A stretch of DNA of 56,645 nt from Parcubacteria group bacterium GW2011_GWA2_40_143 (GTDB lineage: Bacteria > Patescibacteriota > Minisyncoccia > UBA9983), in contig LBYH01000003.1 of the NCBI GenBank assembly GCA_000996035.1, forward strand, positions 1 through 56,645, in the 5' to 3' direction. The notes under the pieces were generated by a model, which was not told the DNA's origin, ran no database searches, and saw only the letters and a list, made by a program, of their open reading frames with translations. Of this stretch, positions 38,958-39,687 are shown piece by piece (position 1 is the stretch's first letter; each line of letters opens with the position of its first letter). The translations under genes were made by a program, and so were the position numbers.

Positions 38958-38990
38958 CCCCAATGTCAAGGTTCAACCTTGACATTGGGG
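38958..38990. repeat. palindrome family B copy (CCCCAATGTCAAGGTTcAACCTTGACATTGGGG)
   Basis: 16-bp perfect arms with central C at 38974, 24 nt upstream of the RAYT-2 ATG. Confidence 0.9.
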
Positions 38991-39013
38991 ACTGTTAAAA
39001 ATAAAATAGAATC

Positions 39014-39682
39014 ATGAGTAGAAATACTGTTTTTGCAATTGATGAATTTTATCATATTTATGCCAGAGGCAATGATAAGCGAAGGGTTTTTCTGGATACA
39101 AGGGACTATTACAGACTCTTGTCCTTGTTTTATCTAGGTAACAGTAAAGAAATAATTCATCTTAGTGATCATGCGGGAAAATCTTTAAACGAGCTACTGG
39201 ACATAGAAATTAAAGACACTCTTGTTGACATTGGCGCTTACTGCTTAATGCCAAACCATTTTCACTTGCTAATTAAGGAAAGAGAGGAGTGTGGCATAAG
39301 CAAGTTTATGCAAAAAATAATGACAGGTTATACTATGTATTTTAATAAAAAATATGAAAAAACAGGATCGTTATTTAGTAGCAGGTTTAAGGCAATTCAT
39401 ATCAATGAAGACAATCACTTAAAACATCTGTTGTCTTATATTCATCTTAACCCAGTAAAAATAACAGAGCCAAATTGGAAAGAAAATGGAATTTTAAACA
39501 AAATTAAGACTGGAAAATTTTTAGATTCTTACCATTATTCCAGCTACTTGGATTATTGTAGTGGAATAAAAAGAAAACAAGAAAAGATTTTAAACACTAA
39601 AGAATTTCCTAAATATTTTAATAGTGCATGGAACTTCAAGAAAACTATAGATGAGTATCTCAATGTCAAGGTTGAACCTTGA
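39014..39682 (+). CDS. HUH-Y1 transposase-like protein (RAYT / IS200-like, COG1943-type), copy 2
   Basis: [18 protein letters not shown] motif MPNHFHLLI, and Tyr motif SYIHLNPVK. The last 7 codons (NVKVEP*) are encoded by the family B palindrome. Confidence 0.75.
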
Positions 39683-39687
39683 CATTG
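39661..39687. repeat. palindrome family B copy (CAATGTCAAGGTTgAACCTTGACATTG)
   Basis: 13-bp perfect arms with central G at 39674. It contains the stop codons of both RAYT-2 (+) and ligA (-). Confidence 0.9.

Follow-up and report, generated by a model that had tools for sequence, protein, structure and literature searches.

The RAYT-2/ligA junction

The stretch of DNA analysed here (the window; 56,645 nucleotides, G+C content 40.9%) belongs to a groundwater member of the Patescibacteria, of Parcubacteria type. It carries three copies of a palindromic hairpin, one of which lies where two convergent genes meet: RAYT-2, coding for a Y1 transposase, and ligA, coding for the NAD-dependent DNA ligase. 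The features of the locus are collected in Table 1.

Table 1. Genes, hairpin copies and boundaries at the RAYT-2/ligA locus (window coordinates)
Feature	Position	Strand	Description
yqeY-like gene	38434..38898	-	Ancestral immediate downstream neighbour of ligA; flanks the other side of the insertion
Outer left end	38916..38956	+	41 nt, from the insertion boundary to the first hairpin; homology to empty-site relatives breaks at 38915/38916
Hairpin copy 1	38957-38991		TCCCCAATGTCAAGGTT-C-AACCTTGACATTGGGGA, 17-bp arms, centre C at 38974
Promoter-like site	38979..39007	+	TTGACA (in hairpin copy 1), 17 nt, TAAAAT, then 6 nt to the RAYT-2 ATG
RAYT-2	39014..39682	+	Y1 (HUH) transposase, 222 aa
Hairpin copy 2	39661-39687		CAATGTCAAGGTT-G-AACCTTGACATTG, 13-bp arms around a central G (39674); forms the unit's right terminus
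RAYT-2/ligA overlap	39666-39682		17 bp of convergent reading frames, wholly within hairpin copy 2
ligA	39666..41765	-	NAD-dependent DNA ligase, 699 aa, full NAD-ligase domain set
CTGATAA (ligA sense)	39689..39695	-	Putative remnant of the ancestral ligA end; old TAA at 39689-39691, out of frame, adjoins the unit
Hairpin copy 3	41411-41437		In frame within ligA; encodes 10 residues in the variable loop preceding the KxDG adenylation motif

The last six codons and the TGA stop codon of both genes are encoded within hairpin copy 2. RAYT-2 ends TAT CTC AAT GTC AAG GTT GAA CCT TGA (...YLNVKVEP*), with its stop at 39680-39682, and ligA ends CTG ATA ACC AAT GTC AAG GTT CAA CCT TGA (...LITNVKVQP*), with its stop at 39666-39668. 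The frame used by both genes, AAT GTC AAG GTT NAA CCT TGA, is the same on each strand except for the centre codon, where the G or C present on opposite strands gives GAA (E) or CAA (Q). Thus, the near-identity of the two tails follows from the symmetry of the palindrome and is not a separate coincidence. The second frame of the palindrome is open on both strands ([M/L/V]SR[L/F]NLD), and the third stops at the centre if N is G or A. The 17-bp overlap and the two tails had been described in an earlier reading of the sequence alone, and both the sequence and the list of open reading frames (ORFs) agree with that description. The same reading correctly gave the upstream copy a C at its centre, but placed it at 38958-38990, which is shorter than its actual extent of 38957-38991.

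The window contains exactly three matches to a 25-nt core, at 38962-38986 (centre C), 39662-39686 (G) and 41412-41436 (G), and 100 shuffles gave none. The predicted RNA fold of copy 1 has an energy of −30.2 kcal/mol (z = −7.2), and for copy 2 the energies on the two strands are −19 to −21 kcal/mol, with z of about −3.3 to −3.5. Counts given here for the repeat family (113 loci; 129, 131 or 132 copies) are among the matches listed, the family as a whole having more than 113 loci. On this basis the window copy is the only one of 132 that closes two convergent ORFs.

The exact RAYT-2 protein overlaps ligA in the same way on all 24 contigs examined, of which the three shown are from ENA, NCBI and Logan assemblies; ligA has 699 codons' worth of protein (699 aa) on the two of these three that reach its start. 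On the 24 contigs RAYT-2 always lies between yqeY and ligA, a single genomic context. At least part of the stretch is contained in 20 DNA runs, mostly groundwater metagenomes.

The C-terminal tail of LigA

Copy 2 encodes LigA residues 694-699 (NVKVQP), and the match to the BRCT domain ends at residue 692 of 699. Among 120 LigA homologs, 119 end in ...EFLxLLx*, that is, 1-3 residues past the ...EKEFLxLL/I at the end of the BRCT domain (e.g. ...EKEFLKLLG*). The tail ITNVKVQP is shared only with a protein of 96% identity, and no ortholog without the palindrome has the same C-terminus. The proposal of the sequence-only reading that the hairpin had supplied the C-terminus of LigA, for which it suggested aligning orthologs to see whether the tail is lineage-specific, is therefore upheld by the 120 homologs and by the lack of the palindrome at the empty sites described below. 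Judged from these alignments, the tail is lineage-specific and palindrome-encoded. The 7-residue extension beyond the BRCT domain is probably neutral.

Comparison with empty sites

In relatives with ~70-79% nucleotide identity, the ligA TAA is followed by a 17-nt spacer and the yqeY ATG, and the palindrome is absent. These empty sites read TAA + TGTGTTACCATGAAAAT + ATG in loci L116-118, and GAG TTA TTG GGA TAA + TGTGATAGCATAAAAAT + ATG in loci L122-125, where the junction at the stop is TAA|TGTG.... In BLAST comparisons of L122-125 with the window, homology ends at 39696 (ligA side) and 38915 (yqeY side), and one Logan contig connects 38915 to 39696 through 12 letters, TTATCCCAATAA. Other joints in Logan contigs were many, short and noisy, came from paralogous transposases of other organisms and could not be interpreted; a joint that skips 666 nt (one contig, with a 30-nt side) was set aside as unreliable.

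In the sense of ligA, the window reads GAG CTG ATA A|CC AAT GTC...hairpin 2...RAYT-2 (antisense)...hairpin 1...GGGGAAAATTTTCGCGTCTGCTAAATATTTCGTAATTCAAACTTCT|TGTGGTAATATAAAAAT ATG. The segment specific to the window is ~775 bp long (38916-39687, or to 39695 at most) and consists of the 41-nt outer left end, hairpin 1, RAYT-2 and the terminal hairpin 2. Thus, the window does not carry a lone inserted hairpin, as had been supposed from the sequence, but a unit with an outer left end, two hairpins and a transposase gene. Neither a target duplication nor terminal inverted repeats were seen in comparing the window with the empty sites at this one location. The stretch from GAG to TAA is 5 nt shorter in the window than in the empty-site sequences, so that the old ligA TAA is out of frame; CTGATAA would be what is left of the ancestral ligA end.

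A third state is found in loci L114 and L115 (~90% nucleotide identity, 96% LigA identity). Downstream of the ligA end, again ITNVKVQP*, come a single hairpin, a spacer with homology to the outer left end, and yqeY; RAYT is missing. On its ligA side this hairpin aligns to copy 2, and on its yqeY side to copy 1. The simplest reading of these alignments is that the common ancestor carried the complete unit and that L114 and L115 later lost RAYT by hairpin-hairpin recombination or slippage. An ancestral complete unit is favoured because both loci keep the outer left-end segment.

RAYT-2 and its flanking hairpins

RAYT-2 matches the Pfam family Y1_Tnp (PF01797) with 46 bits (cut-off 23), and NF047646 (REP_Tyr_transpos) is the sole NCBIfam match for all three paralogous transposases in the window. 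In an alignment of 37 family sequences the HUH histidines H82 and H84 (HFH) and the tyrosine Y142 (in YIHLNP) do not vary, and the protein has a conserved C-terminal extension of ~70 aa. A search of the Protein Data Bank (PDB) with the single RAYT-2 protein found nothing.

The habit of ending in a palindrome is widespread in this family. The 119 closest non-identical homologs are 52-64% identical to RAYT-2, the nearest at 64%, and at least 56% of them (67/119) have C-termini encoded by the palindrome in one of its three frames: ..VK[V/A]xP* in 39, ..KV* (TAA at the centre) in 16, SRxNLD.. in seven and ..QG* or QGSTL.. in five. The tails of twelve more resemble the products of other palindromes. 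The palindrome starts straight after the last conserved residues of the family (WL; YL in RAYT-2), and in related loci the position of the downstream hairpin ranges from within the end of the ORF to ~25 nt beyond the RAYT stop. The native C-terminus of RAYT-2 had been thought to be replaced by the hairpin, as that of LigA was; going by these homologs it was not, and reading into the downstream hairpin is normal for this transposase family.

The upstream hairpin may have a role in expression, as its right arm contains TTGACA at 38979-38984, the first element of a promoter-like site with 11 of 12 consensus matches. The same layout and spacing are found in loci L055, L091 and L084. The left hairpin thus probably supplies the −35 box for the RAYT-2 transcript, and the short distance from the TAAAAT box to the ATG suggests that the mRNA is leaderless. 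Similar −10-like boxes (TGgTAATAT, TAAAAT and TATAAT) stand 6 nt before the ATGs of yqeY, RAYT-2 and a further transposase gene, RAYT-3 (38899-38915, 39002-39013 and 44924-44935), which suggests the use of leaderless mRNAs in this organism.

The sequence-only reading had also described the flanking copies as inverted, as in classical REPtrons, the units formed by a RAYT gene and its flanking repetitive extragenic palindromic (REP) elements. The sole asymmetry between the copies is the centre base (C versus G for the flanking pair). Flanking by the same palindrome with ~700-bp spacing is also seen in L018, L023, L040, L055, L084, L091 and L092, and the centres of the flanking copies are opposite in three of the transposase loci (the window, L040 and L023) and the same in five (L018, L055, L084, L091 and L092). 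In the two sister transposase units of the window the hairpins are directly repeated. Over the family, 129 copies in 113 loci have C (41), G (37), A (27) or T (24) at the centre. No GTAG or CGTC tag was found, the base counts of the flanks being mirror-symmetric over 131 oriented copies. Thus, the inverted arrangement rests on one base that does not hold across related loci; as a mark of orientation the centre base appears unreliable, and the classical inverted REPtron layout is not established.

Origin of the double stop

The anatomy of the locus, the lineage specificity of the LigA tail, the empty sites, the habit of the transposase family and the fixed location are best explained by the insertion, right behind ligA and apparently as one unit, of a REPtron-like or IS200-like element whose terminal palindrome has a stop-bearing frame on both strands. 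We consider this explanation probable. The RAYT-2 ORF would run into its own terminal hairpin, as those of most homologs do. The ligA frame, a few nucleotides off that of the empty-site sequence, would no longer meet the old TAA, and LigA would read 20 nt into the same hairpin from the opposite side to reach the mirror-image TGA.

Several points weigh against this explanation. The score of RAYT-2 against NF047646, 52.1 bits, is under the cut-off of 80, and a PDB search with a family profile gave marginal matches that place the family equally close to ISDra2 TnpA (E = 0.068) and TnpA-REP (E = 0.09). The unit was seen at full length only once, so that its mobility as a whole is deduced from a single site. 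The ligA-side boundary (39688 versus 39695) and the frame-shifting event are reconstructed from empty sites of 70-79% identity. The order of events, whole-unit insertion followed by loss of RAYT, is likewise a reconstruction, favoured over the arrival of a solo hairpin first.

In that other order, a lone hairpin would have come to the ligA 3′ end first, giving the state of L114, and RAYT-2 with the second hairpin would have been a later addition, made for instance when a hairpin-RAYT circle recombined with the hairpin already in place. The hairpin and NVKVQP tail of L114 and L115, without RAYT, are in keeping with such a course, as is the fact that solo copies are common, also within genes. 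However, the spacer that L114 retains between hairpin and yqeY shows homology to the 41-nt outer left end, which the empty sites lack. A retained left end is expected from internal deletion of a complete unit and not from insertion of a bare 27-nt hairpin, and we regard the hairpin-first order as rather unlikely. The possibility that the arrangement is an artefact of assembly or sequencing, with a chimeric junction or with true stops lying upstream as the sequence-only reading had envisaged, draws only on the fact that palindromes can in principle misassemble. RAYT-2 lies beside ligA on 24 of 24 contigs, the three shown being from different pipelines, Logan contigs of many runs also contain the stretch, and the 96%-identical LigA has the same tail; an artefact is effectively refuted.

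A function in RNA was also considered, in which the hairpin would be selected as a bidirectional terminator or as a 3′ mRNA stabilizer for ligA and RAYT-2, and the overlap of the stops would itself be functional, for example by coupling termination and folding. The copy 2 stem is stable on both strands, and E. coli REPs near stop codons influence translation and mRNA stability, according to the summary in PMC12306157. However, no T-run follows the stem on either strand (tails GTTATCAG on the forward and AGATACTC on the reverse), and an intrinsic-terminator scan made no call at 39661-39687, leaving the idea of a bidirectional terminator without support in the sequence. Further, ~40% of hairpin copies lie within essential genes, where termination would be lethal, and only one copy in 132 closes two ORFs. 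Both stops are in the descending arm, so a terminating ribosome would already have opened the stem. A selected role as a terminator is unlikely, in part because the same hairpin also lies within many essential genes, and a function of this kind as a whole is in our view very improbable. At the level of RNA, six metatranscriptome runs from the same samples or studies contain none of the stretch, and a search of Rfam at gathering thresholds returned only five tRNAs in the window, with no match at the hairpins. Comparison with phage DNA gave no match.

Comparison with known palindromic elements

REPs have been found directly after rayt stop codons or at a very short distance from them (Nunvar 2010, PMC2817692), and the termini of REPs often give stop codons to flanking ORFs, with REPs also found within replication and repair genes (Di Nocera 2013, PMC3733652). 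Like the REPtrons, of which E. coli yafM/TnpA-REP (PDB 4ER8) is an example, the window unit has a Y1 HUH gene, apparently single and fixed going by the 24 contigs, between two copies of a short palindrome that is probably also dispersed in the genome, and the downstream repeat is at or right after the stop. Unlike theirs, the window hairpin is a perfect palindrome that lacks a GTAG head or other tag, one loop base at most carrying its orientation, and the flanking copies are not consistently inverted. RAYT-2 also differs in falling below the NCBIfam RAYT cut-off and in its conserved C-terminal extension. Further differences are that the host belongs to the Patescibacteria and not the Proteobacteria, that a 21-nt core is conserved across many lineages of the Candidate Phyla Radiation (CPR), and that ~40% of the copies listed are intragenic.

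The GTAG/CGTC REPs are alike in that their termini supply stops and that in-frame copies lie in replication and repair genes (PMC3733652). The host genes are uvrA, uvrB and recB for the GTAG/CGTC REPs, and ligA, uvrC, recJ and tRNA synthetases for the window hairpin. The former provide the stop through the TAG of their GTAG tag, found at one end, the latter through a TGA inside the stem, symmetric on both strands. Because of this symmetry, one copy of the window type can close two convergent ORFs with mirror-image tails.

The IS200/IS605 elements (IS200, IS608, ISDra2) share with the window unit a Y1 transposase, a length of ~0.7-0.8 kb, a subterminal left hairpin and a terminal right hairpin, and the lack of terminal inverted repeats and target duplication, the last comparison being at one comparable site. 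The window unit differs in that its two end hairpins are identical to each other and to the solo copies, and in that multiple full-length copies were not seen.

Rickettsia palindromic elements (RPE), ~100-150 bp long, lie in frame in housekeeping genes of a reduced genome, to which they add short peptides; they are not known to have a dedicated transposase. The likeness to the window hairpin lies in a repeated palindrome that is in frame in conserved genes and absent from orthologs, as is copy 3 in ligA. RPE are unrelated to it in sequence and longer, and the window hairpin has an associated transposase. RPE are mentioned in PMC3733652. Ribosomes stall in E. coli at REPs placed no more than 15 nt from a stop codon, according to work cited in PMC12306157 (its reference 17). 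Both there and in the window a stable hairpin is immediately near a stop codon, but the E. coli hairpin, as that source presents it, lies downstream and blocks the terminating ribosome, whereas in the window the stop is inside the descending arm, and the stem would already be open.

The window case is thus a variant of known REP/RAYT biology and not a new mechanism, and the double stop, which follows neatly from a mobile element of a known kind, is a curiosity without demonstrated function. Its interest is that a transposase-associated hairpin has rewritten the end of an essential gene, with the empty, filled and transposase-deleted states all present in natural populations. Annotation of CPR genomes is affected as well, through gene lengths that vary spuriously, gene calls that overlap and contigs that break at hairpins, and the case bears on alignments of CPR housekeeping protein families and on the tolerance of reduced genomes for mobile DNA.

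The wider hairpin family

The family as a whole is the more interesting lead: an untagged, perfectly symmetric hairpin, conserved across Patescibacteria and often in frame in essential genes. The 21-nt core, TGTCAAGGTTNAACCTTGACA, is found in Parcubacteria, Saccharibacteria, Gottesmanbacteria and other Patescibacteria, and in one Bathymodiolus gill symbiont. Several copies per genome are usual, with at least 13 loci in one Lloydbacteria metagenome-assembled genome and the three copies in the 56.6 kb of the window. Approximately 55 of the 132 copies lie wholly within ORFs of at least 100 aa, nearly all of them in the frame that is open on both strands, [M/L/V]SR[L/F]NLD. Ten host genes that were checked are real housekeeping genes, namely those for AlaRS, UvrC, Dus, an FAD-linked oxidase, RecJ, a class I aminoacyl-tRNA synthetase, ArgRS, two LeuRS and a fused ClpB-Dus ORF (with the copy in the Dus part).

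We tentatively propose, with well under even confidence, that TGTCAAGGTT-N-AACCTTGACA may be a selfish hairpin element, compatible with coding and adapted to the gene-dense, reduced genomes of Patescibacteria. Each strand would offer one fully open frame, giving a 9-residue SR[L/F]NLD insert, and at least one other frame with a stop, so that a copy may land in a surface loop or at a gene end and leave the gene intact. If true, this would explain why ~40% of copies lie in essential genes, why the core persists across many lineages of Patescibacteria and in one gammaproteobacterial symbiont, and why gene ends such as ligA/yqeY are captured repeatedly. The double stop in the window would then be one symptom of a superphylum-wide system, similar to RPE but with its own transposase. 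No papers on RAYT or REP in Patescibacteria were found in the literature on RAYT and the CPR or on in-frame palindromic elements in Patescibacteria, and a REP/RAYT-like system in this group is possibly undescribed.

Two of the intragenic copies lie in unusual host ORFs. One ORF of 1165 aa fuses ClpB-like and Dus domains (L082, 1485-4979), and a LeuRS ORF has a DUF559 domain between its catalytic and editing parts (L100, 4612-7515); both contain the hairpin in frame. The core also occurs together with fragments of a RAYT homolog (53-60% identity) in L024, L027, L033, L080, L088 and L107, which are contigs of the thiotrophic gill symbiont of Bathymodiolus heckerae. Going by its name, the symbiont is a gammaproteobacterium, far outside the Patescibacteria, and its hairpin and RAYT fragments may have come by horizontal transfer.

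Other palindromes in ligA and in the window

Four other LigA genes contain the 21-nt core at a similar distance from their stops. In locus L127, a different palindrome, CATGTCAAACAC-CGA-GTGTTTGACATG (3556-3588), is read through by ligA and encodes the tail HVKHRVFDM*. This palindrome, CATGTCAAACACCGAGTGTTTGACATG, is located at the ligA/yqeY junction, as in the window, and the L127 tail is an independent capture of the same gene end. The tail RNVKK* of another homolog, P0059, was considered as a second capture of the window hairpin and rejected, as its DNA is not palindromic.

Most aligned LigA orthologs have some insert, of varied sequence, in the loop preceding KxDG where copy 3 lies. A 70%-identical relative (L116, 5000-7109) carries a hairpin dimer there, GCGACATCAAGGTTTAACCTTGCCACAAGGTTAAACCTTGATGTCGC, ..SRFNLATRLNLDV.., and further orthologs carry other short inserts (STSDVEGG, STSNVDS) or lack one. 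The window ligA contains a second in-frame palindromic insert at ~40974-41051, AAAAAAGAAGGGGGA...TCCCCCTTCTTTTTT, which is ~78 nt long (−44.9 kcal/mol) and encodes 28 residues; it is present in the closest LigA orthologs and not in more distant ones.

The two paralogous Y1 transposase genes of the window each have their own hairpin family. RAYT-1 (31917..32600, reverse strand) is accompanied by direct hairpin copies, CTATCGACATCGAAyGTCAATAG, at ~31896, 32619 and 32637, and is located between UvrA-like and UvrC-like ORF pieces that are apparently split (region 30857-33343). Three further palindromes of this region (30857-30882, 30896-30925 and 30931-30959) are located within the UvrC-like ORFs or at their ends, and one of these ORFs closes with ...KKRRF* inside a hairpin. 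RAYT-3 (44936..45685, forward strand) has four direct repeats, GC[A/G]TCGACGTCGGACTTCGACGC, at 44843, 44900, 45519 and 45702 (region 44843-45725), that at 45519 being inside its own ORF (..ASTSDFDA..). The five tRNAs identified by Rfam form a cluster on both strands at 35469-36072.

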